A stretch of 64,000 nt of DNA from Candidatus Bathyarchaeota archaeon (GCA_963726255.1 CAVSBL010000002.1:384001-448000), one strand, 5' to 3'; shown: positions 11,379 to 63,895, numbered from the stretch's first letter. Notes: generated by a model from the sequence alone, not told the origin. Numbers and translations are program-made.

Positions 11379-11666
11379 TCATTTCAGTTCTTGGAGTCTG
11401 TCCTCCTCGAGCTTGCGGAGAATAGCTAAGCCGAGGGGAGTGAGGGAAAGGAATTTGTGGTCGCTTGAATTCGACTGTTCGACGAAGCCCTGGTTCGTGA
11501 GAGTCTGAATTGCCCCTGCGAGGTTTTGAGCCATCTCATTCGGCAATTCCGTTTGCAGACTGCTCTCGTCAACCCCGTTCTTTCCTATGCCCTTGAGTTT
11601 CCATATGGCTAGGAGTACTCGTTGCTCGAGGTCTGCGAGGCCGCTCGTTTCGGGCATGGGTGGCAT
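11379..11666 (-). CDS. Small winged-helix protein
   Basis: LTNQGFVE...LSLTPLGLAIL wing motif. Confidence 0.65.
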   Translation of the reverse strand: MPPMPETSGLADLEQRVLLAIWKLKGIGKNGVDESSLQTELPNEMAQNLAGAIQTLTNQGFVEQSNSSDHKFLSLTPLGLAILRKLEEDRLQELK

Positions 11667-21073: not shown

Positions 21074-21230
21074 ACAGTCTCATGCTGTCACTTGTGTGGA
21101 GCTGTTGACGCCCTCAACGTTTCGCTTTAGTAGAAATGTGGAACTTTCTCCCTTTTAGACTTCTTCTCCAAGCCCCGTTAAATACCTAGACGGCTAATCT
21201 ACTGCTGTTGATGTGTGGAGGTGAGTTGAG

Positions 21231-21317
21231 ATGGCGAAGAAACGCAAGGTCAAGATGAAGCTTGCTGAGAGTGGTCACGTTAAATCTGAGACGGGACAAA
21301 CTGAATACGTAGCTTAA
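21231..21317 (+). CDS. 28-aa basic small protein
   Basis: MAKKRKVKMKLAESGHVKSETGQTEYVA; GGAGGTGA SD motif, TTAAATA box upstream, T-rich tract downstream. Confidence 0.6.
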   Translation: MAKKRKVKMKLAESGHVKSETGQTEYVA

Positions 21318-21348
21318 GGCCGTCGAGCACGGCAGGCGTGCAGTCCCG

Positions 21349-21370
21349 TCTTTCTTCTTGTTTTTCTTAT
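21349..21370 (+). terminator. Pyrimidine/T-rich archaeal terminator candidate
   Basis: ctttcttcttgtttttcttat after the small ORF. Confidence 0.45.
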
Positions 21371-24521: not shown

Positions 24522-24876
24522 CGTAGGTGAGGTGTCTCCAGCGTTGCTGCTAACCTTCGCAATTAAGAGGGTGGATCCACCCGTCTTGGGGTGGTGCCAA
24601 ACGGTGCCAAGCGAAGGTAACCCTCGGCTTGTTTTACGTCTCAATCCCCCCATACGAAGCGGTCTACAGGCCCGGGCCATGTCGAGGATTCTACCCGTGC
24701 GTGCACAACGGTATTTGTAGACGGTTAGTCGCTGGTAACTAACTGTATCGTTGAAATGCCTGCCAGCTCCGATACCCCAGGTTCATGTCATTTGAGCATC
24801 GTATTTGTGACTGTCTTCATCGCTAACAGGCGGATTGGTTCTATGATAACGAATCCAATGAGTGTTTTGCAGCCGC

Positions 24877-49359: not shown

Positions 49360-49442
49360 GTCTAGGGTGAAAAGGGGGATGCCGAAGCCTTGACCGAAAT
49401 TGATAAACCACTAACGACCCACATAGTTAGGATGGGTATTCT

Positions 49443-49748: not shown

Positions 49749-49931
49749 ATGAGCACTAAAACAAAGTCCTATCTTGCGATATTGATGGGTATAATCATCA
49801 TCCTCGCGGACATATACTGGCTCATAGTCGGGAACAGCTACCAGTACGCACCCTGGCTCGCTGCAGGCATTGTGATCCTCATAGCCAGCGTCGTCTGGAT
49901 CATTCTCGACTACAGCCTAATGGAAAAGTGA
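49749..49931 (+). CDS. Small 2-TM membrane protein
   Basis: Two hydrophobic helices; TTTAAA box upstream, T-rich tract downstream. Confidence 0.7.
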   Translation: MSTKTKSYLAILMGIIIILADIYWLIVGNSYQYAPWLAAGIVILIASVVWIILDYSLMEK

Positions 49932-53631: not shown

Positions 53632-54423
53632 ATGAGTCAGATATTGAAGATCGTCCGGGAAAGACAATCGTCGAGGGTTCCCTTCGAACCGGAGCGCTCT
53701 GTAGCTAAACAAGACTTGAAGCAAATCCTCGAGGCGGCGCGCTGGGCACCCACTGCCCACAACATGCAGAACTTCGAGATCATCGTAGTGGACAGCAAGG
53801 AACTTCTGGAGAAGATAGGAAACATCAAGTCTCCGATCTCGGAAGCGTTCATCAGAGAGAATTATCAGCAGCTCTCCTTCTCGAAAGATGAGTTTCTTCA
53901 AAACAAAGTTGGAATCCTAGCCACTATGTTTCCTCCGGAATGGAGGGATCCCGCTAAGGTGGACGAAGTCCTTTGTGAAAGCAAGTCCTGGTTGCTGAGC
54001 GAAACCATGGAAGGTAGTCCAATCGTTCTGATCGTGATCTATGACCCTGGGAAGAGGGCACCCGCTTCAGAGGGGGATTTTCTGGGTATTATCAGCCTAG
54101 GTTGTGTTATGGAAAACATGTGGCTCGTTGCCCAGGACCTGAGAATCAGTTTTCACGTAATGAGTGTCTTCAGCACGGACCTTGTGGAAAACGAGTTGAA
54201 GCGACTTCTCAGTATCCCCCAATACATGAAGATTGCATTTGCCATCCGCTTGGGATACCCCGTCTCTACGTCAGCTAGATACCTGAGAGTGCGCCGTGAT
54301 CTTGAGACGTTCGTCCACGATAACAGGTTTGGAAATGAATGGCCTACGTCCTCTTACACGCCATCGTCCCTTAGTAAACGTGCGGCTTCTCACTCGAAGA
54401 AAAAACATTCAGTACGCAACTAA
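53632..54423 (+). CDS. Nitroreductase-family protein
   Basis: RQSSR, ILEAARWAPTAHNMQ, MENMWL, LGYP. Confidence 0.9.
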   Translation: MSQILKIVRERQSSRVPFEPERSVAKQDLKQILEAARWAPTAHNMQNFEIIVVDSKELLEKIGNIKSPISEAFIRENYQQLSFSKDEFLQNKVGILATMFPPEWRDPAKVDEVLCESKSWLLSETMEGSPIVLIVIYDPGKRAPASEGDFLGIISLGCVMENMWLVAQDLRISFHVMSVFSTDLVENELKRLLSIPQYMKIAFAIRLGYPVSTSARYLRVRRDLETFVHDNRFGNEWPTSSYTPSSLSKRAASHSKKKHSVRN

Positions 54424-54692
54424 GTCTGCTTCGCGTTAGTGGCGGTCGTCTGGTTTCTTGCTTCCTTAATCTCCGCCTTGACCCTTTCCCGCGTCAGTCC
54501 CGCTGACATAGCGCTCCTGAAAATCTCTCTTCTCAACTCGTTGCAGGAATCTCTCAGTGCAAGATAGCGCAGTGAGTTTTCGCCGTTGCCATTCTTAATT
54601 TCCTCGAACAGGCCGTCACACTCGTTTTCCTGTTCAGCTAAGCTATGGATTCTGTTGTCGAACTCATCAAAACCTGTCGTCATCGCAATCAC
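54420..54692 (-). CDS. Small helical hypothetical protein
   Basis: 90-aa open frame; TTTATA box upstream on the minus strand. Confidence 0.55.
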   Translation of the reverse strand: MIAMTTGFDEFDNRIHSLAEQENECDGLFEEIKNGNGENSLRYLALRDSCNELRREIFRSAMSAGLTRERVKAEIKEARNQTTATNAKQT

Positions 54693-54869
54693 AGCTCCAT
54701 CGGGGTGGTCGGTATAAAGTACTTAGGCCAACTAGAATCGCAGAAACAGGGGAATCATTGTTTCAGGTTGCCGTGAAAGCTGCTATCGGCCGTCATCTTT
54801 GCATCATTTCTTCCTGTTGATGCGTTGGCTGGCATTTTGGATGGTCTTTTCTCTCGGTCTGTATGAGTT

Positions 54870-54892
54870 TGCGCACCAGCCGACCCACACAC
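54870..54892 (-). repeat. Dispersed intergenic repeat, copy 1
   Basis: Minus strand GTGTGTGGGTCGGCTGGTGCGCA. Confidence 0.7.
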
Positions 54893-54917
54893 GAGCATAT
54901 CCATGAAACAAAGCTCG

Positions 54918-55514
54918 CTAATATGTTATCAGAATCTTCTCTTCAAGCGTTTCTTGAAGCTTCGCGACTGCTCGGTGAACCTCCCCCTCCTTCTTCGCAC
55001 CAGTGCAAACGAGTTTTCCACTGGCGAAAATCAGAATCACGGCCTTTGGGTCATCCATTCGATAGATCAGACCCGGAAACTGTTCAGGCTCATACATGGT
55101 GCGTTTCAGTGAGTAAGTTACCTTTTCCAAATCAATATGGCCGCCTAATCCTGCCGAAGCCACTATATTTTGAACCTGAATCTCAGGCTTACCCAGAATG
55201 ACGATCCCCATACGGTTGAGCTCGTCCACAACTTTCATAACGGCCTTGCGAGCCTGCCGCTCCGACTTCGCCCCAGTACATACCATTTTACCCGAGGTGA
55301 AGATCAACGTGGTGGCCTTCGGTTTTTTCAATCGATATACTAAGCCCGGAAATTGCTCAGGCCTATATTCTACGCCAGGGCACGCACGTACGATAGAGTT
55401 CAAATCAACATTCTGATGGAGAGTTCCTGTCGCGACCACGTTCTCGATGTTGATGAACGCTTTCCTTCCAGGCCGAGGTGCCACCACAGGTAAGCTCGCT
55501 ACATCAACGTTCAT
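54918..55514 (-). CDS. tbp: TATA-box-binding protein
   Basis: Two repeats of NVVA/NIVAS...Y.PEQFPGL.YR...LIF.SGK.VCTGAK. Confidence 0.97.
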   Translation of the reverse strand: MNVDVASLPVVAPRPGRKAFINIENVVATGTLHQNVDLNSIVRACPGVEYRPEQFPGLVYRLKKPKATTLIFTSGKMVCTGAKSERQARKAVMKVVDELNRMGIVILGKPEIQVQNIVASAGLGGHIDLEKVTYSLKRTMYEPEQFPGLIYRMDDPKAVILIFASGKLVCTGAKKEGEVHRAVAKLQETLEEKILITY

Positions 55515-55558
55515 GAAAACTTCAACTAGATATTCCCTACATCAATGTTCATGAGAAC
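55499..55558. repeat. 22-bp direct repeat (2 mismatches) at the tbp 5' end
   Basis: CTACATCAACGTTCATGAAAAC (55499-55520) and CTACATCAATGTTCATGAGAAC (55537-55558). Confidence 0.75.
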
Positions 55559-55660
55559 GAAAACCCTTGCAACACTCAACGCCAATCTATTGTACTCCAC
55601 CTTAAGTGAGTATCTACAAACATCCAGACTCAACGTGACAAGAACTCGTTGAACCGTGAG

Positions 55661-55687
55661 GTGTGTGTGGGCCTAGTGGTACACATG
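55661..55687 (+). repeat. Dispersed intergenic repeat, copy 2
   Basis: GTGTGTGTGGGCCTAGTGGTACACATG. Confidence 0.7.
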
Positions 55688-55740
55688 CTCTAAGGTTTCT
55701 TTATCTACGTTTTATAACACATTATCCAGTTGTTCTGCAT

Positions 55741-56913
55741 ATGAGACATGTTTTTGACATTACCATCGTAGGCGGCTCATTTGCCGGCATCAAGTCTGCG
55801 TGGGACTTACGGAACAAGATTCCTCGCCGCCACAGGATAACCCTGATTTCCGATAAGTCTAAGACGATAATTCGAGCCTCCTTCCCGCGAGTAGTCTTCG
55901 AGGATGTCCCTCTCGAAGAACTAGCGTTAGATTTGGCTAAGAATTTCAAAGGCACGGGCATCGAGTTTATCCATGATCGTCTTGTAAGGATTGATCAAAA
56001 CGATAACCAGATCATTACAGCTGAAGGCAAGCACAAGTTTGACTTTCTAGTCGTCGCCACAGGCGCGCGCCAAGCCTACGAACTTCTTCCCGGCAGTCAT
56101 GAATATGCCAGGTCCATATGCGACCCATCCCAAATTTTGGAGACAAAGAAGGCTATCCTGAATTTTCGAGAAGGCGATTTCTATTCTGGAGTAGGAGCAG
56201 GCTATACACCCTGCGACGGCCCTCCTCTAGAAATGCTCATGGGCCTGGATCACCGCTTACGCAAGCTGGGCTCCCGCGATAAAGCCCAACTCAACTTCAT
56301 CACAGACAAGGAGAAGGTTCTGCCACCAGGCGGACCGACAATTTGGGCGTACCTAGAAAACCTCTTCAAGAAACGACGGATCAATGCTCTGCTCGGCGTT
56401 GAGCTTACAAGGCTTGACGCCGATTATCTCTACTTTGCAGACGGCTCGAAGAAACCCTACGACCTCTGCTTACTAATACCGCCTTACCGCGGCGTTAAGG
56501 AAGTGGAGGACTCTGGCCTAACAGAAGAGCTAGGTTTCATTCCGGTCGAACAGAACACCATGCGTGCCCAAAAATCTGAAAACTCGAACATCTACGCCGT
56601 AGGAGATGCCGCCGCGATCCCTGGCCCCAAGCAGGGGCACCTCGCGCTCATGCAAGCAGGCGTCGCAGCAGCTCACATCGCTTGGCGCATCAACAAGAAG
56701 GGCGAGGTACCAAGCTACATACCTGAATTCAAGTGCGTCATGTATCTTGGCGGTGGAAAAAGCCTGCAATTATACTCGCAATGGATGTCCGACGGCGACG
56801 TTCAAATAGCAAAAGCCAGCCATCAAGCTGAACTTTCCAAAATCAAATTCGAAAAACTCTTCTTCAGCCGCCGCGGTAACATCGGTGAACTTCATAGAAA
56901 AATGATAAAGTAG
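55741..56913 (+). CDS. Sulfide:quinone oxidoreductase-like flavoprotein
   Basis: IVGGSFAG, LVVATGA, PCDGPPLE, IYAVGDA, PKQGHLA, FKCVM. Confidence 0.8.
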   Translation: MRHVFDITIVGGSFAGIKSAWDLRNKIPRRHRITLISDKSKTIIRASFPRVVFEDVPLEELALDLAKNFKGTGIEFIHDRLVRIDQNDNQIITAEGKHKFDFLVVATGARQAYELLPGSHEYARSICDPSQILETKKAILNFREGDFYSGVGAGYTPCDGPPLEMLMGLDHRLRKLGSRDKAQLNFITDKEKVLPPGGPTIWAYLENLFKKRRINALLGVELTRLDADYLYFADGSKKPYDLCLLIPPYRGVKEVEDSGLTEELGFIPVEQNTMRAQKSENSNIYAVGDAAAIPGPKQGHLALMQAGVAAAHIAWRINKKGEVPSYIPEFKCVMYLGGGKSLQLYSQWMSDGDVQIAKASHQAELSKIKFEKLFFSRRGNIGELHRKMIK

Positions 56914-56954
56914 AATCCGCAGTTACTCAGCCTCCAACCAATCGCGTTAATGAT

Positions 56955-58451
56955 ATGGCAGAACAAACGAGCAACGACCAGTGGCGTGGGAGTGGCCGAA
57001 CCTTAGCGAGTGATGTTGGGGCTTCGAATTACAAGTGGACTGTTCTTCTGATCACTACGATTGGGGCTTTCATGGCGCCGTTTGATGGCAGCGTAGTGAC
57101 AATCGCGATTCCCGCCATCGCCTCCTCGATCAGGCTGGGATTGGAGGCGGCGGTTTGGATTCAACTAGCCTACCTTCTCTTTTTGACAGTGCTTTTGATT
57201 AATGCGGGTAGGCTGGCCGACCTTCATGGAAGGAAACGGTTCTACACGCTCGGGTTCATCATCTTCACCGTCGGATCGGTGCTTTGCGCGCTGTCCACGA
57301 CAGATCTACAGCTAGTATCTTTCAGAGCCTTACAGGGGTTGGGGGCGGCGTTCATTTCCGCTAATAGTCCCGCAATCGTAACCGACACGTTTCCCCGGGA
57401 AGAACGCGGTAAAGCATTGGGCATCAACACGATGGCAGTATACACCGGGCTCATGGTTGGCCCTGTGCTCGGAGGTGTTCTGGTTCAGAATTATGGTTGG
57501 AGGTCGATCTTCTTCGTGAACGTCCCAATTGGGATCGTAGTAGTTGCGTTAACCACTCTCAAATTGAAAGAGAATATGCCTGACGAGAGGGGGACAGGAT
57601 TTGACCTTCCGGGCGCAGCAACGCTCTCCTTAGGATTAGCCTCGACGCTAGTTGTGCTGACGCTCGGTGGTGTGTTTGGTTGGGTTTCAGCACCCAGCAT
57701 CCTGCTAGCTGGGCTGAGCGTTGTCATGCTGCTGTTGTTCTGGCGAATTGAGACAGGGCTAGTCCGGTTTCCCACGTTGGATTTGTCGTTGTTTACGCGG
57801 AACCGGTTGTTTGCGGCAGCGAATGCGACCGCTTTTCTGAGTTATGTTGCGGTGAACGGGGTCACGTTGACGATGGCGATCTACTTGGAGAGTATCAAGG
57901 GCCTAGGCCCGCAGACTGCGGGCTTATTCCTGATTGCGCAGGCTACGCCAATGGCTTTGCTTTCCCCGTTGAGTGGTTGGCTCTCAGACCGGTTTGGGTC
58001 GAGAGTGCTGTCAACGTTGGGTATGGGCATTGTAAGTATGGGGTTGTTATTGTTTTCAGAGTTGAATGCGACGTCGTCGGCGTTGGATACGGTCTTGAGG
58101 CTTGTGGTGGTTGGGGTTGGGTTTGGCTTGTTCTCGTCCCCCAACACGAGTGCTGTGATGGGTTCTGTGAGGCAGGAGAAGTTGGGGGTAGCGGCTGGAA
58201 CATTGGGTACAATGCGTTTCATGGGCCAGTCGATAGGATTGGCATTGCTTGGGATGGTTATGGCGGCCACATTGCCGTCCCAGGCTTTGCTCGCGGTTTT
58301 CGCTGGGCTCACCTCACAAGGCGGCTTGACAGTTAGCGAGTTTGTTGTGGGGATGAGGGACTTCTTCCTGATAGCTGCTGGAATAGGAGCAATTGGAACG
58401 CTAGCGTCAACGACCAGAGGTCAAGAAAACACATCGAATGCGGAAGATTGA
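56955..58451 (+). CDS. MFS drug:H+ antiporter (DHA2, 14-TM)
   Basis: GRLADLHGRKR, FRALQGLG, ERGKALG, WRSIFFVNVPIG, FSSPNT. Confidence 0.93.
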   Translation: MAEQTSNDQWRGSGRTLASDVGASNYKWTVLLITTIGAFMAPFDGSVVTIAIPAIASSIRLGLEAAVWIQLAYLLFLTVLLINAGRLADLHGRKRFYTLGFIIFTVGSVLCALSTTDLQLVSFRALQGLGAAFISANSPAIVTDTFPREERGKALGINTMAVYTGLMVGPVLGGVLVQNYGWRSIFFVNVPIGIVVVALTTLKLKENMPDERGTGFDLPGAATLSLGLASTLVVLTLGGVFGWVSAPSILLAGLSVVMLLLFWRIETGLVRFPTLDLSLFTRNRLFAAANATAFLSYVAVNGVTLTMAIYLESIKGLGPQTAGLFLIAQATPMALLSPLSGWLSDRFGSRVLSTLGMGIVSMGLLLFSELNATSSALDTVLRLVVVGVGFGLFSSPNTSAVMGSVRQEKLGVAAGTLGTMRFMGQSIGLALLGMVMAATLPSQALLAVFAGLTSQGGLTVSEFVVGMRDFFLIAAGIGAIGTLASTTRGQENTSNAED

Positions 58452-58487
58452 AAGGCGATTCTACGGGGGAATCTGAGAATGCGTGAA

Positions 58488-58513
58488 TGCGAGCACCAGT
58501 TGTACCACGCACA
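58488..58513 (-). repeat. Dispersed intergenic repeat, degenerate copy 3
   Basis: Minus strand TGTGCGTGGTACAACTGGTGCTCGCA. Confidence 0.45.
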
Positions 58514-58559
58514 TATTTTTGACGGCGAATGACGACGGTTGGAACGGGAATTTGCCTGT

Positions 58560-58780
58560 AAGATGTCGTTCGGATTTCTAGTTCTATGTTTGATTAGTGC
58601 ATAGGCGATTGTCATGAAGACTGCGAGTAAGGGTAGACCGTAGGGATATTCGGGTATTGCATTATTGGTTGCCGTGAAATTCACGCATGAACTCTGTGGA
58701 ACAGATTCGGGTCCCTGATACGGGTAACTGTTGTCAAAGGCATAGACGCTGTACATGCCTGCAGGAAATGGTCTTCGCAT
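58560..58780 (-). pseudogene. 3' fragment of a surface-protein gene with a PEF-CTERM-like sorting signal
   Basis: IPEYPYGLPLLAVFMTIAYALIKHRTR tail with no signal peptide or N-terminal body; boundaries approximate. Confidence 0.55.
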
Positions 58781-58823
58781 GTGCGTATCAGTTGTACCTC
58801 ATCTTCGGTGACTGTCATCTTAT

Positions 58824-58850
58824 TGTGTGCGCACCATTAGACCCCGCACA
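58824..58850 (-). repeat. Dispersed intergenic repeat, copy 4
   Basis: Minus strand TGTGCGGGGTCTAATGGTGCGCACACA. Confidence 0.8.
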
Positions 58851-59114
58851 AAAATCCCGAATATACCTGAGAAACCTTAGCCTAAGAGTCAAGCGTGAGA
58901 ATGTAAGCCTGCTAGGGACGAGGCCCCTGACTTCGTTCGATCGAGATTGGGTTGAGGCGTGTTAACACTCATCATAATCCCGGAGATAACGCACGACCTC
59001 GAAATGAGGGCCTACATCATGCAGATGGCCCATCTCGGTATGGAACACGCACGTTCTATATGAGGTACATTGATATACCTACATCCATGCCATATACTAC
59101 TGAGAGTCGAAAAT

Positions 59115-60560
59115 ATGCAAAGAAAACAATTAGCATACACAGCCGCATTCATCCTACTTCTAGCCCTCCCATTTCTGTCAATTCCATCACTCACAGCGCC
59201 CCAGCAATCAAACCTCCAGTTCGAACCACTCATACTCTTAGCCCCCGACGACGCCCAATACCCAACCGTCGGCCCATTCGCGTGCACAACACCAATCCCA
59301 GTCCGCTACTCAACCTCGTTCCACTGCTACAACCCCGCCAACATAACCGAAGCATACGGCGTCGATAGCCTCCACGCAGCCGGAATTACAGGAGCAGGCG
59401 AAACAATAGTCATAGTCGACGCGTATGGCAGCCCAACCGCACAGAACGACCTAAACTTCTTCAGCACCACCTTCGGTCTCCCAAGCGCCAGCCTCACCAT
59501 CGTCTACCCCGACGGCACCCCAACCTGGAGTCCGTCTGCGATGAAAGGCGTCAAGGTCAACTGGGCCGTGGAAACAAGCCTTGACCTGCAATGGGCCCAC
59601 GCCATAGCCCCGGGCGCTAAACTAGTCCTCATCGCAACCAACCCAGCAGAGACACAAGGCGTGCAAGGATTCCCGAACATGTTCAAAGGGATCCAATACG
59701 CCATCAACAACTATCCAGGCTCAGTCGTAAGCCAGAGCTTTGCCGCTACCGAGCAATCGTTCCATTCAGCAGGCGACGCAATAATCCGACAATTCGACAA
59801 AGTATACCAACAAGCCGAAGCTAACTATGTGACCGTCATTGGGGCCTCAGGCGATAGCGGTACAGCGAACTCCATAGGCGGCCAAGGCGCGTCCACACCC
59901 AAACCACTCGCCTACCCAACAGTCAATTGGCCATCCTCCGACCCGCTAGTAACCTCCGCAGGCGGAACATGGCTTCAATACAACTGGACATGGACCCCAA
60001 CCTCGCCGACAGACCTAACCTACGCCACAACACCCGGCTCAAAGACTGAAGCCGTATGGAACGAACCATTCCTGCCCGCAGCGACCGGCGGCGGACTCAG
60101 TACACTATTCTCAAAGCCATCATTCCAATCAAGCATACCTTCCAGCCTATTGAACGGCCAACGCGGATTACCGGACCTATCATGGAACGCAGCAGTTGAC
60201 GGCGGAGTCCTAGTCTACACAAGCTTCCCAGGATTGGGAACCGGCTGGCACATAGTAGGTGGAACCAGCGCAGCCTCACCACAACTAGCAGGCCTAATCG
60301 CCCTCGCAAACCAGAAAGCTGACATACTCGGCAAGAGCCACCACGTCGGCTACCTCAACCCAATCCTTTACACATTGCCAGCCTCCGACTTCAACGACAT
60401 CATCCCACAAACCTTCGGCAGCGTAACAATAGACAACAATTCGCTATACGGCTCAGGCGTCGCAGGCTACTCAGTGACGGTAGGATACGACCTCGCCACT
60501 GGATTCGGAAGCCCGAACGCAGCCAACTTCGTCAACGACCTCGCCAACGCACTACCCTAG
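59115..60560 (+). CDS. Secreted S53 (sedolisin/kumamolisin-like) peptidase
   Basis: IVIVDAYG, ETSLD (ExxxD), ASGDSG, GGTSAASP, GYLNP, GYDLATGFGSP. Confidence 0.92.
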   Translation: MQRKQLAYTAAFILLLALPFLSIPSLTAPQQSNLQFEPLILLAPDDAQYPTVGPFACTTPIPVRYSTSFHCYNPANITEAYGVDSLHAAGITGAGETIVIVDAYGSPTAQNDLNFFSTTFGLPSASLTIVYPDGTPTWSPSAMKGVKVNWAVETSLDLQWAHAIAPGAKLVLIATNPAETQGVQGFPNMFKGIQYAINNYPGSVVSQSFAATEQSFHSAGDAIIRQFDKVYQQAEANYVTVIGASGDSGTANSIGGQGASTPKPLAYPTVNWPSSDPLVTSAGGTWLQYNWTWTPTSPTDLTYATTPGSKTEAVWNEPFLPAATGGGLSTLFSKPSFQSSIPSSLLNGQRGLPDLSWNAAVDGGVLVYTSFPGLGTGWHIVGGTSAASPQLAGLIALANQKADILGKSHHVGYLNPILYTLPASDFNDIIPQTFGSVTIDNNSLYGSGVAGYSVTVGYDLATGFGSPNAANFVNDLANALP

Positions 60561-60581
60561 CCTTGAAAAAAGGCCAGCAAC

Positions 60582-60606
60582 TCTCCCTTCCCTTTCTTTC
60601 TTTTCC
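60582..60606 (+). terminator. Pyrimidine-rich terminator candidate
   Basis: tctcccttccctttctttcttttcc after the S53 stop. Confidence 0.5.
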
Positions 60607-60688
60607 AGATCGCGATCTTAACCTCACGGTTGAATCGTACCTTCGCGGTGTATCTTGATTTGTATGATTGCTAGTATCTTTCGGAAAC

Positions 60689-61303
60689 TCACAGGGTCTT
60701 CTTCAGGGCCCGTATGTTGAATGTTGTATTGGCGCAACCATTCCTGATTAAAGGCACATTTTGACCTGGCAGCCCCGTCTTCTCTAGCAGCCTTTCAGCT
60801 AGCTTGATCTCCTCGCCGCAGGCGACGCCCACAAGTGCCTCATAACGGCCTTTTTGCAGAATCTGATGGATACATGACCCGCCCGGCAGAACATAAACAT
60901 CGTACCCTCTCTCCTCCCCAGCCAGTGTCGCTTGGTTTACCAAGCAATCGGGTGAACAGTGAGAGCAGCGGTATGATGGAATGTTGGAATCGAAGACGGC
61001 TTTACAGCGATTGTCCATATATTTCCTTGAGCAGTGAGGTAGCAGCAGCACTCGCCTGGAAGTTCTTACGAATCTTTCCCGGTTGTTGAAATTCTTAGTC
61101 TGGATATCTATCAAATCTTCGAGGAGCATTAGAGCTTGAGCAAAATCCAACCCTGTGATCTCCTGAACTCTGAATCGCTCAAGAAGACGCAGAGTTGCCT
61201 CACCAATTCTTCTGTGCAGCCTTCTCTTCTGGGCAGCCACCACAATTCCTGTGAAGAACGATTGAGATAGCCGTGTCAGGTCGAACTTGAATTGGTAAGG
61301 CAT
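60689..61303 (-). CDS. DUF116-family protein
   Basis: LLLPHC...C...C..C...C, YVLPGGS, VGVACGEE, GC. Confidence 0.88.
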   Translation of the reverse strand: MPYQFKFDLTRLSQSFFTGIVVAAQKRRLHRRIGEATLRLLERFRVQEITGLDFAQALMLLEDLIDIQTKNFNNRERFVRTSRRVLLLPHCSRKYMDNRCKAVFDSNIPSYRCSHCSPDCLVNQATLAGEERGYDVYVLPGGSCIHQILQKGRYEALVGVACGEEIKLAERLLEKTGLPGQNVPLIRNGCANTTFNIRALKKTL

Positions 61304-61371
61304 GAGTCTCGTATTACCGCCAGGAGCAATAAGCTCACAGGGCGAGTCCTGGTTTTGGTACTTTATCGGAA

Positions 61372-61404
61372 GTGCGTGCGCGCACCAGCAGACCCCATAC
61401 ACAC
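61372..61404 (-). repeat. Dispersed intergenic repeat, copy 5
   Basis: Minus strand GTGTGTATGGGGTCTGCTGGTGCGCGCACGCAC, directly abutting the YciI stop codon. Confidence 0.8.
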
Positions 61405-61701
61405 CTAATCGATATGTCCCAGCAGAATCTGCCAGGGCTCGATCTTAGCGATTCGGAGTATGCCCATCGACATCCAAGGATCGGCAGCAAGTCGTCTCTC
61501 AATCGCACTTTCTCTGTCAGCACTGACGATCAGCATTCTTGAATCATCGCCCAAAGGACCGCCGAGAAGTACAAAACGCTCGTCAACAAGGCTGTTCATA
61601 AATGCCGCATGTTTGGCCCACTCTTCTTGCTCCCGTATGGACCGCGAATGATTCCAGGCTGGGCCAAGCGCTTCAATTACCACGAAATACTTCATACTCA
61701 T
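61405..61701 (-). CDS. YciI-family protein
   Basis: HAAFM, LLGGPL, ADPW. Confidence 0.85.
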   Translation of the reverse strand: MSMKYFVVIEALGPAWNHSRSIREQEEWAKHAAFMNSLVDERFVLLGGPLGDDSRMLIVSADRESAIERRLAADPWMSMGILRIAKIEPWQILLGHID

Positions 61702-61782
61702 CCGTTCGAGATCTATACAGAGTTTGTCAAATTGCCGACAAACGCTTGTCACAAGGGCGGCTGAAGTTCAGGCATTTTCCTA

Positions 61783-61813
61783 TGTGTATGGGTCTAATGG
61801 TGCGCACACACAC
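61783..61813 (+). repeat. Dispersed intergenic repeat, copy 6
   Basis: TGTGTATGGGTCTAATGGTGCGCACACACAC. Confidence 0.85.
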
Positions 61814-61858
61814 TAAGAAAAGGGAAGCCTCAAAAACCATTCGAACTAATGGGAATGC

Positions 61859-62308
61859 ATGAATTCCGAGGTTCTTGATCTCGAACTGCTGATTCGTAAG
61901 CCACCAGATTCGGTTCGCGCCTGGTGGACGGAGTACCCGGACGACTACCGCGCGAAGGACCCACGAGAACAACCATACCGAATCCTGACCACTCGTCGGT
62001 TCCCGAACGGCCGAGAGGTTAGAACCTATTGGCGACTGCCCGATGGATCAACTCCGGAGTTGCAGGAGGTCCTCAACTTGAAACCCGACGGAACGTGGAC
62101 TTATGAACTTCCGTATCCAAATCCAACAGGCATCCATGTCTTCGATGAATTTCGCACTGAACCAACACCGATCGGAACCAGACTCTTGATACATAGTACG
62201 TTGACACCGCGAGACCCTGCCGCTACAGGCCGTGTTTCCGGGCTAAAGGAAATCATGATTTGGAGTTGGAAGCATGCAGCAGAGGTTTGTGAACATGACG
62301 CCCCTTGA
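61859..62308 (+). CDS. Hypothetical protein, SRPBCC-like
   Basis: IRKPPDSVRAWWT...PIGTRL...W pattern. Confidence 0.65.
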   Translation: MNSEVLDLELLIRKPPDSVRAWWTEYPDDYRAKDPREQPYRILTTRRFPNGREVRTYWRLPDGSTPELQEVLNLKPDGTWTYELPYPNPTGIHVFDEFRTEPTPIGTRLLIHSTLTPRDPAATGRVSGLKEIMIWSWKHAAEVCEHDAP

Positions 62309-62410
62309 TTAAGTCAGCCTACGGCAAAACCGAATCTCCCTCTGTGGTCTGTGGGTGTACTGCGTCATAATGGGCACAGGGAAAACATTCCGAATACGAC
62401 GCCTAGAATC

Positions 62411-63103
62411 TCAGAGACCAGCTTTCGCTTTCAACGCTGCCCATCTGTCTTCACCTAACGCTTCTTCTGCCATGCGTGCCAGGTTCTGGAAAACCGGCGC
62501 AGGCGCGCTCTTCTTCAATTCCATGAACATGCCAGTTAGTTCGTTAATGTTGAGCGATGGAAAGAGCCAACTATTCCATTGAGCAGCTCGTTCAGCCGTG
62601 AGGCTTTCAATCACGTTTGTTCGCATAGCAATAATCTGTTCATCAGTAAAATGTTTCCACATCGCAGGGACGAGTGTCGATTCTTCACCATTCAGATGTG
62701 TAAGGTAGAAGGCGAACAAATCATTCGCTGTGCGGTTCAGTTTATCGCCCATCTCAATCCTTTCTTCTCGATTCTTAAGCGTCTTTACTTCATCTGCAAT
62801 CTTCCACAGACCTGCTATCATTCTCACAACCTCTCTATGCTCCTTCAATAGTGTATCGACCATCTCGGGCTCAAACGCTCGAACATCCGGAAAGACATAC
62901 TGATCCTCGAGCCCTGCATGTTCATGAAGCAAGCAGAGAGTGCAAGCAGAACTAGCGGAGGCAAGATCCTGCTTCAACCTGGAGACCATTGCGTCGGTTG
63001 CGTGCTCATCGGTGAAGTCTGTTGCTTGAAGTTCCTTTGCCAGTTCGTAAATCATTGACCGAAGGGCTTTATGAATTGGCGTCAAAAAATCTGCGCGAGT
63101 CAA
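62411..63103 (-). CDS. Hemerythrin-like (HHE) domain protein
   Basis: IHKALR, HAGLEDQYVFP, EH, HLNGEE. Confidence 0.85.
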   Translation of the reverse strand: MTRADFLTPIHKALRSMIYELAKELQATDFTDEHATDAMVSRLKQDLASASSACTLCLLHEHAGLEDQYVFPDVRAFEPEMVDTLLKEHREVVRMIAGLWKIADEVKTLKNREERIEMGDKLNRTANDLFAFYLTHLNGEESTLVPAMWKHFTDEQIIAMRTNVIESLTAERAAQWNSWLFPSLNINELTGMFMELKKSAPAPVFQNLARMAEEALGEDRWAALKAKAGL

Positions 63104-63165
63104 GACTTGATCGTAGCGGGAGTATGATGCAGCGTTATTTGTTTCTTATCCTTGTTGGGGCGAGT

Positions 63166-63196
63166 TGTGTGTGGGTCTAGTGGTGCGCACACACAC
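63166..63196 (+). repeat. Dispersed intergenic repeat, copy 7
   Basis: TGTGTGTGGGTCTAGTGGTGCGCACACACAC. Confidence 0.85.
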
Positions 63197-63235
63197 TTCT
63201 AACCGACGTTCTGACGACGAGCATGCTGCTTTTTC

Positions 63236-63895
63236 TCAACGCTGTCCAGTCGGTACCTTTTCCGCATGCAAGAGGACGAAGGCCAGCACCGCCACCCATA
63301 GCATCCAACCATAGATGTTAACGCGTTCAGTGGCACCGAGCCATGGGGTCGGCAGGTTAGCGCTAATCGCAGGAACGTAAGAAAATCCAATAAAACCAAA
63401 CGCCAAGATTATCATGAACGACCCGACCGAGTAGTAGCGGAACCAATTTCGATATGCAACGGCTCCGAACACTATGGCCAACAGAATGGTGAAAACCCCC
63501 ACAGCGGTGAGAATCACGTGAAGCATACCGGCAGACTCTGCGCCGGTCACCCCGCGCATCGGTGCTGGGAAGTATACGGGCGTCACCAAACCATCGATCG
63601 CCTGGCCGAATACCATCAATGCTGTGACGCGCAAGGCGCGGTTGCGACCAGCTGACACCCAGACGCCCAAAGCGAACGCAAGCAAGAGCACGCCATACAC
63701 GGCGCCTAACCGAAGACCGAGTTGTCTAACAGGAGAGCTGGGGGAGAGCAGCTCGCTGAAGCCTTGAGATGCAAAACTGTAGCCCACATACAGTGTACCT
63801 GCGAGCGCGTCGATACTGGCATAAAGCAGCGAAGAGAAGATGCCGCAGAGGAGTAAGACCTGTCGTTTTTTCGTCAATGTCTGCGCAAGCCCCAC
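63236..63895 (-). CDS. DUF998-family membrane protein
   Basis: GYSFASQGFSEL, FPAPMRG, LH, WFRYYS, GATER. Confidence 0.82.
   Translation of the reverse strand: MGLAQTLTKKRQVLLLCGIFSSLLYASIDALAGTLYVGYSFASQGFSELLSPSSPVRQLGLRLGAVYGVLLLAFALGVWVSAGRNRALRVTALMVFGQAIDGLVTPVYFPAPMRGVTGAESAGMLHVILTAVGVFTILLAIVFGAVAYRNWFRYYSVGSFMIILAFGFIGFSYVPAISANLPTPWLGATERVNIYGWMLWVAVLAFVLLHAEKVPTGQR

Follow-up and report, generated by a model that had tools for sequence, protein, structure and literature searches.

A short repeat was studied in a 64,000-nt stretch of DNA from a Candidatus Bathyarchaeota archaeon (GCA_963726255.1, CAVSBL010000002.1:384001-448000); the whole stretch is called the window here, and positions are counted from its first letter unless a genome position is given. 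Copies of the repeat lie between accessory genes towards the end of the window, from 54870 to 63196, where the original prediction, made from the window sequence alone, had taken them for recombination or insertion sites of a cassette-building system. The genome containing the window (G000, a 2.42-Mb assembly) was compared with 22 other members of its genus and 18 genomes outside the genus, making 41 genomes including G000; other G numbers denote the compared genomes. At class level, the names of thermosome relatives assign the organism to Candidatus Bathyarchaeia. The repeats are probably the junctions of casposons, and of enzyme-less gene-carrying derivatives, inserted one behind another. 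The accessory-gene arrays built at these junctions have most likely been exchanged among related sediment archaea. Casposons are rare, large, polymerase-carrying transposons of the Cas1 type that have been proposed as ancestors of CRISPR adaptation.

Repeat copies and gene units in the window

All copies have GTGTGTG-GGGTC-NNN-TGGTGCG in common. On the opposite strand this reads as a 14-nt core, 5'-CGCACCA-NNN-GACC-3', with ...GTGTGTG and CACACAC... as flanks. With a clear copy defined as GGGTC-NNN-TGGTGCGCA at 0-1 mismatch, a pattern scan of the window finds five, at 54870(-), 58828(-), 61379(-, 1 mismatch), 61790(+) and 63173(+). Two more copies are degenerate: the one at 55669(+) has three mismatches and retains its GT arm, and the one at 58488 has a core with three mismatches followed by a 33-nt terminus, CACGCAC...ACGACGG. 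The predicted repeat is therefore real, with five clear and two degenerate copies in place of at least six clear and one degenerate. At up to three mismatches, 10 matches are found in the window against 5.5 expected, so only copies with 0-1 mismatch count as evidence. The weak candidates proposed near 49407, 62343 and 63888 are indistinguishable from chance, as 132 places in the window are within three mismatches of the core. All copies lie between open reading frames (ORFs), and one abuts a stop codon (61405-61407), both as predicted; the impression that the motif is missing from the housekeeping part also holds, with no copy at 0-2 mismatches in window 1-54000. A different repeat family is present in that part (~24542-24688 and ~21113-21363); it is multi-copy in relatives, with dozens of 40-190-nt matches (75-95%) per genome.

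The first junction (54862..54896, +; core CGCACCAGCCGACC at 54872-54885, +) has a poor left arm, and its right CACACAC terminus faces a single-gene unit encoding a TBP paralogue (54918..55514, -; Pfam). On the far side of this unit, the degenerate second copy (55657..55692, -; core TGTACCACTAGGCC at 55670-55683, -, 3 mismatches) is inverted relative to the first and turns its CACACACAC terminus towards the tbp unit. A Pyr_redox_2 oxidoreductase (SQR-like) and an MFS transporter follow (55663..58451, +; Pfam), and these two genes have separate relatives on separate contigs (85% G007, 88% G012). The second degenerate copy (58492..58538, +; genome position 442506) consists of the core AGCACCAGTTGTAC, the 33-nt terminus-like CACGCACATATTTTTGACGGCGAATGACGACGG and then TTGGAAC. 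The junction at 58820..58854 (+; core CGCACCATTAGACC at 58830-58843, +) has a left GTGTG arm and a degenerate right arm, and is followed by a gene for a secreted Peptidase_S8-like protease (59070..60560, +; Pfam).

The DUF116 unit (60655..61378, -; Pfam) runs into the junction at 61369..61405 (+; core CGCACCAGCAGACC at 61381-61394, +), and its homology with relatives stops inside this junction, between ...TGGTGCG and the CAC arm. Of the two arms of this junction, the left one, GTGCGTGCG, moves together with the DUF116 unit, and the right one, CCATACACAC, directly adjoins the stop codon of a 115-aa ORF (61405..61752, -). Beyond this ORF lies a junction in inverted orientation relative to the previous one (61778..61814, -; core CGCACCATTAGACC at 61791-61804, -), so that the ORF is flanked by inverted cores. 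Next are a 149-aa ORF (61859..62308, +), whose 87% match to G004 begins at 61807, at the junction edge, and a hemerythrin-domain gene (62411..63103, -; Pfam). The last junction in the window (63161..63199, -; core CGCACCACTAGACC at 63174-63187, -) is the only one there with an identical direct partner. This partner, the same 14-mer with a leader (see below), is 2.45 kb further on, past the window end (genome position 449637, -), and the pair brackets a 2.45-kb insert with a DUF998 gene (63236..63895, -; Pfam) and one further ORF. Most of the gene labels given earlier (tbp, MFS, DUF116, hemerythrin, DUF998 and the Pyr_redox_2 enzyme) are confirmed by Pfam, the exceptions being the protease, which matches Peptidase_S8 and not S53, and the 115-aa and 149-aa ORFs, labelled YciI and SRPBCC, for which there is no Pfam match.

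Four tbp genes are found in G000 (contig C2, 438921-439514, 121102-121677, 1773704-1774225 and 997411-997974), three of them within 1 kb of a junction. Paralogues of basal transcription factors are recurrent cargo by junctions, with TBP in G000 and TFB in G034 (loci L076 and L077). Window 54420-54805, comprising a 90-aa ORF without a Pfam match and its upstream region, is multi-copy in relatives (86-91% identity), with at least three copies each in G015 and G011, and one of the G011 copies is ~0.7 kb from a tbp paralogue.

Distribution and exchange of the repeat-bounded units

When the scan is widened to the whole genome and its relatives, as the original prediction had proposed, an nhmmer profile (E<0.05) finds 47 copies in G000, all on the main contig and in about 20 clusters; the cluster of the window extends 10 kb beyond the window end. 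Of these copies, 33 are wholly outside ORFs of at least 80 aa, which make up 87.6% of the contig (binomial P ~7e-20). Intergenic regions of all three kinds, convergent, divergent and tandem, contain them, on both strands and often 18-40 nt from stop codons. A strict pattern allowing at most one mismatch occurs 20 times in G000, in 20 of the 22 other genus genomes (at most 27 copies) and in one of the 18 genomes outside the genus (G034). The same pattern read backwards, used as a control, has no occurrence in any of the 41 genomes. A defence-like island with TIR, HEPN AbiV, YaaC-like and S8 protease genes adjoins a junction-rich array elsewhere in G000 (L034, G000:C2 1342001-1351000).

Synteny with relatives holds to about window position 49,900 and then fragments. 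The 9.6-kb region of the window is kept whole in no relative, and its single genes match on scattered contigs. The motif is missing from syntenic core regions and is restricted to inserted DNA; at one syntenic locus, two housekeeping neighbours are adjacent in five of five relatives but separated in G000 by 2.3 kb of repeat-bounded units. Core DNA of G000 is 82-84% identical to that of G004, 77-80% to G015, ~80% to G014 and 68-73% to G011. The DUF116 unit is 97% identical in G004, 96% in G011 and 92% in G014, an MFS unit reaches 97-98% against G015 and G004, a DUF3303/CBS unit 93-95%, and a further unit 92% against G002, where the baseline is ~70%. Exchanged units are thus overall 92-98% identical between species with core DNA that is 68-84% identical. 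Their order also differs. Two units that are 5.7 kb apart in G000 are directly joined in G004, and in G015 a CBS unit and an MFS unit, separated in G000, lie on either side of one repeat. Homology between species breaks at the motif, and units are exchanged and reordered, which bears out its predicted position at the boundaries of strain-variable units. Inserts vary in size. A 47-nt direct repeat, made up of leader, core and terminus, lies on both sides of one small insert, and some inserts are only 20-50 nt.

The 2.3-kb insertion (L027, G000:C2 870600-873100) seems to have severed the 3' end of a cobW-like gene, and a diverged remnant of the C-terminal coding part is found on the far side of the insertion. 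Logan contigs were used for a check at the level of reads. At nearly all joints in elements, the match on one side is shorter than 36 letters, so that they may only reflect repeat ambiguity, and none is taken as evidence of excision; this includes joints that would delete the 2.45-kb insert (L054 9196 to 11637-11659, 3 runs). A joint from 13527 to 6655 reproduces the gene order of G004 and may derive from a relative in the sample.

Junction anatomy and casposase-bearing elements in relatives

Copies have a short or a long form. In the short form, CACACAC follows the common part directly, and in the long (L) form RGC-N6-AATTTGAAC follows. The reverse complement of the long form is GGTTCAAAT-N6-GCY-CGCACCA, which looks like the T-loop, acceptor strand and CCA of a tRNA, and is called the leader here. 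The real tRNA genes of G000 include the CCA, with ...CGCACCA as the end of some of them; in G002, a leader follows a real tRNA at a distance of ~70 nt. The long forms were also considered as unrecognised tRNA genes, and this was rejected, as Rfam finds no tRNA at E <= 1 in 55 kb and no ARAGORN gene overlaps them. In G000, ARAGORN reports two standard intron-less tRNA genes (7 calls, 5 with the anticodon undetermined) and 35 when introns are allowed, and several of its calls imply 'introns' of 566-2802 nt. The far end of the island (G000:C2 ~457200-459600, L025:10211-12604) has a terminase-large-subunit-like fragment, a HxlR-type regulator and a tRNA-like 3' end, which matches the tmRNA model at 20 bits. 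The tRNA-like end falls within a tRNA-Ala prediction that has a 1115-nt 'intron', and the whole may be what is left of a provirus at a tRNA.

Many copies have just one arm. The arms are best resolved in G034, an AT-rich genome of another family, in which 17 copies of one core, GGGTACCTTGGTGCGC, are found. Its left arm is GTGTGTGT or CGTCGTCGTC and its right arm ACACACAC or GACGACGACG, and these combine as GT/AC (8), CGTC/GACG (2), GT/GACG (3), CGTC/AC (2) or partially (2). Such mixed combinations imply that each arm is a module of the adjoining neighbour and that the core is the shared part, as expected with two element families using one target. A 648-nt SnoaL unit in G034 with GACG...CGTC ends is flanked by two direct cores, which have GT and AC as their outer arms. 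A second arm type in G000, CGTCGTCG, was tried and set aside, being weakly enriched (left 6/53, right 7/53, against a 4.4% background).

Identical cores are found in G000 in 4 of 54 adjacent same-orientation site pairs, against 0.21 expected, and none of 5000 shuffles reaches four; one of these pairs shares a rare variant, CGCAACATTAGACC. Termini often run on into a leader-like TTCAAAT stretch, so elements may bring their own copy of the leader plus target with them.

Matches to Cas1 (PF01867) are present in 13 of the 22 genus members, often in multiple copies (11 in G018). The Cas1 ORFs are 401-414 aa long. One of 14 such ORFs, of 404 aa and from the second G014 locus (contig C8), was used for a structure search, and its best solved match is the Methanosarcina mazei casposase (6OPM, E 4e-69), with CRISPR Cas1 at 4.5e-21 or worse. 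No Cas2, Cas4 or other CRISPR-associated family is found within ~4 kb of the Cas1 loci; the neighbours include HNH, HEAT-repeat, winged helix-turn-helix (wHTH), methylase, TIR and AIPR proteins. A junction lies within ~4 kb of 11 of 13 Cas1 loci (one of them weak), the rough chance being 16% per locus. The idea that Cas1 lies within a conserved longer element was rejected, as the copies share DNA over the ORF only.

In three relatives, a casposase gene lies within an element that is bounded by identical cores, with a leader before the first. The G014 element has 8,615 bp between copies of CGCACCACTATACC and encodes a 410-aa Cas1. The G002 element has 17,481 bp between copies of CGCACCAGCATACC and encodes a 412-aa Cas1. 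Both have CACACAC... and ...GTGTG ends, with terminal inverted repeats of 9-10 nt. The G015 element has 10,965 bp between copies of CGCACCAGCATACC, encodes a 404-aa Cas1 and ends in CGCCCCCGCCGCC... and ...GGCGGCGGCGGGGGCGG, a third terminus type with terminal inverted repeats of ~17 nt that is also found in G000 at 455228. Further enzyme-less elements of 5.6-8.0 kb stand in tandem behind the same 14-mer. The G002 element (L131, contig C38, 2376-19856) has metabolic cargo: aldehyde:ferredoxin oxidoreductase, ferredoxin, M24 peptidase, amino-acid permease, luciferase-like monooxygenase, DNA methylase and a ParB-N protein.

Probable casposon junctions and alternative explanations

In M. mazei casposons the duplication is 14 bp long, starts with an invariant 5'-CGCA, varies at its centre and takes in the final 4 bp of a tRNA gene; integration depends on ~30 bp of tRNA sequence upstream, tandem casposons share one duplication, and solo terminal repeats are found beside CGCA (PMC6977970; PMC4779613). 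By analogy, the core of the repeat would be a target-site duplication left by a Cas1-family integrase (casposase) that joins both 3' ends of an element at sites staggered by 14 bp. The arms would be termini, with ...GTGTGTG ending the element to the left and CACACAC... beginning the one to the right. A duplication shared by tandem inserts with inverted-repeat ends makes an imperfect palindrome with an asymmetric centre, so the hairpin would be incidental, consisting of the end of one element, the duplication and the start of the next. Junctions of this kind explain the weak folding, the one-armed copies, the interchangeable arms of G034 and the position of copies at the edges of units. Given that its arms are interchangeable, one-armed copies are common and folding is weak, the hairpin is not the functional unit.

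The tRNA-end look-alike at the start of arrays would be the leader that the enzyme needs, and leader plus CGCACCANNNGACC is the predicted target for a casposase joining CACACAC-ended DNA; we infer that the leader acts as target determinant. The small inserts of G000, with one to a few accessory genes and no enzyme, may likewise have been made by a casposase, presumably supplied in trans by relatives. Alternatively, the G000 units may have been reshuffled by recombination between the 30-60-nt junction repeats.

Several observations weigh against casposon junctions. No PF01867 match is found in G000, nor any tblastn match or remnant with 14 Cas1 ORFs from relatives, and ten element-bearing genomes, including G000, G034, G011, G013 and G017, are without a Cas1 match. 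Family B polymerase is missing (E <= 1e-5) from the 38 ORFs of at least 100 aa in the three casposase-bearing elements and from 105 ORFs around 11 Cas1 loci. The leader and long forms are no tRNA by Rfam, and ARAGORN genes do not coincide with them. The terminal repeats are very short, at 7-17 nt, extending loosely to ~33 nt and ending in ACGACGACGG, and the 47-nt direct repeat at one insert is longer than a 14-bp duplication. Few core variants are common, so a matching pair of 14-mers at the large elements is more likely to arise by chance than a match over 14 random bases. Among adjacent same-orientation core pairs in G000, 50 of 54 differ, and inverted rather than direct cores flank several inserts (the tbp unit, the ORF at 61405-61752 and G034:C70). 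One insertion cannot give inverted cores, so a later step is needed, either an inversion or a flip of the centre between the two short arms. Such events, or homologous recombination between junctions of 30-60 nt, may lie behind the disorder.

The main rival is a reciprocal site-specific recombinase of a new kind, with the core as an integron-like crossover site; recombination would be conservative within a 14-16-nt core, and the arms would be inverted repeats bound by the enzyme. This would suit much of the anatomy: G034 has all four arm combinations, cores are both direct and inverted, homology breaks exactly at the core edge, a 47-nt direct repeat surrounds one unit, and neighbouring cores are frequently unlike, which would follow from each cassette having a site of its own. 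It is nevertheless unlikely, since the CGCA, 14-nt and leader match and the linkage to casposases are left unexplained, and no suitable enzyme was found. G000 has no match to PF00589 (tyrosine recombinase; 14 of 14 control genomes positive), PF01797 (Y1 transposase; 6 controls positive) or PF00239 (serine recombinase; controls positive), and Pfam finds no recombinase in 218 G000 ORFs around elements (20 in the window and 198 further) or in 44 from G034. The original statement that no recombinase is visible in the window thus extends to the whole genome, and the linked tyrosine recombinase or HUH/TnpA(Y1) gene that it suggested looking for is not present in G000. The failure to detect a tyrosine recombinase in G000 also implies that there is no XerA-like gene.

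Tyrosine integrases (PF00589) are present in 19 of the 22 genus members, and their distribution does not follow the repeats: they are absent from the element-bearing G000, G006, G007, G012 and G034, and present in the element-free G009 and G022. Six tyrosine-recombinase matches are clustered within 12 kb in G013 (C16:1240-12959). The distribution of the integrases counts against the reciprocal recombinase, and also against a second possibility, that the repeats are attachment (att) sites of tRNA-targeting tyrosine-integrase elements, with the long forms as attL/attR remnants and the short forms as decayed derivatives. The latter would account for the resemblance of the long form to the T-loop-to-CCA segment of a tRNA, for real G000 tRNA genes that encode CCA and in some cases end in ...CGCACCA, and for the one unit with a 47-nt flanking repeat; among 30 integrase loci of relatives, eight are beside real tRNA 3' ends and one is beside an L-like site. 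The GGGTC-NNN core with its arms is found at none of these 30 loci, however, G000 and G034 have no integrase, the long forms are not tRNAs, and single-gene units stand at 20 or more loci that are not close to tRNA genes. A link to tyrosine integrases was rejected on these grounds and attachment sites are quite improbable. The resemblance to a tRNA end is explained by the overlap of casposon targets and integrase att sites, which can share one tRNA end (PMC4779613). Least probable of all, a functional host sequence (a transcription factor site, terminator, RNA-stabilising hairpin or REP-like element) whose copies are passive hot spots of homologous recombination would fit the strongly intergenic positions often 18-40 nt from stop codons, the conservation across the genus and the ability of the arms to pair in some copies, but is rejected on position and folding, as the repeats lie in convergent, divergent and tandem regions in both orientations, occur within inserted DNA and not in syntenic core regions, are often one-armed, have non-complementary arm pairs in G034, lack a Y1 transposase and match no Rfam family at threshold across the window, and just three of six window copies fold better than shuffles as DNA (z <= -2), one of these by forming another small stem.

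The pairing of the arms around a variable centre, as first described, is thus possible in some copies and weak overall, and a regulatory RNA hairpin or protein-binding site, offered earlier as alternatives, is disfavoured. The cassette idea itself holds, and its analogies with integron attC, pdif and REP elements fail. A match to an insertion sequence end or a tRNA remnant had been named as evidence against cassettes; the junctions formally resemble both, and this refines the cassette idea rather than refuting it.

Among known systems, the junctions are close in form to family 2 casposons (M. mazei, Aciduliprofundum boonei), with which they share a 14-bp duplication starting 5'-CGCA with a variable centre, a target by a tRNA 3' end or a look-alike that would act as leader, tandem elements sharing a duplication and solo termini by CGCA. 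The casposase of relatives, at ~400 aa and with 6OPM as its best solved relative, and its HNH, HEAT and wHTH neighbours are also alike. They differ from family 2 in that no family B polymerase was found, the terminal repeats are 7-17 nt and not at least 31 bp, the 3' part of the duplication is GACC and not AT-rich, the leader is a pseudo-tRNA end and not a tRNA gene, cores may be inverted, and most inserts are without an enzyme, contain one to a few genes and occupy at least 20 loci per genome. As to membership of the casposons, a duplication of ~14-15 bp and terminal inverted repeats are both found, the latter much shorter than published, and the Cas1 gene is absent from the window and from G000 but present in the G014, G002 and G015 elements with the same junctions. 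All four casposon families described in a 2023 review are defined by cas1-polB islands, and neither 'autonomous' nor 'Bathyarch' occurs in its available text (PMC9939771). A literature search gave no report joining casposons with Bathyarchaeia, or of non-autonomous or miniature casposons.

The arrays also resemble those of integrons in having single accessory genes between short imperfect palindromes, cassettes reshuffled between species, and breakpoints at the edge of a site, part of which travels with the next cassette. Unlike integrons, they have no IntI or other tyrosine recombinase, their genes are in mixed orientations and they are spread over many loci; archaeal integrons, as described, have IntI and canonical attC. 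The attC consensus has conserved outer cores, whereas the site here is ~32 nt with an asymmetric conserved centre. In contrast to Xer/dif (pdif) systems, there is no Xer-type tyrosine recombinase (PF00589), and the centre is 14-16 nt as compared with 11-6-11 sites. Repetitive extragenic palindromes (REP) with their RAYT transposases, and miniature inverted-repeat transposable elements, are similar as short clustered intergenic palindromes that behave as non-autonomous derivatives mobilised in trans; here, however, no Y1 (HUH) transposase is found, the palindrome is a junction of two neighbours and the inserts carry genes. Islands of tRNA-targeting integrases differ in that none of the 30 integrase loci of relatives has the armed core. 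As in CRISPR arrays, a leader lies beside a short repeat that would be duplicated at each Cas1-family integration in a repeat-insert-repeat order, and some inserts are only 20-50 nt. Unlike in CRISPR arrays, the repeats are 14-16 nt, the inserts are genes or termini of irregular length, and there are no Cas2, effectors or regular spacing.

The signature of casposon integration recurs across a whole genus of abundant sediment archaea, with at least 20 loci per genome. It mostly surrounds enzyme-less units, among them transcription-factor paralogues, transporters and small redox or detoxification enzymes, that are exchanged at near identity. A more far-reaching and somewhat doubtful possibility is a polymerase-less casposon lineage of Bathyarchaeia, in which a casposase acting in trans inserts single genes or 20-50-nt termini by a portable tRNA-like leader, each insertion recreating the target. 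The resulting leader-repeat-insert-repeat arrays would be integron-like and may serve as a model of a casposon-CRISPR intermediate. If casposases do move these units, they would be the first non-autonomous casposon derivatives to be described, as far as the literature search found, and a Cas1-driven route of accessory-gene capture in archaea. They would also provide a natural system in which short repeats made by Cas1 next to a leader separate captured DNA, so that the scenario leading from casposons to CRISPR could be tested with enzyme, end and target all defined.

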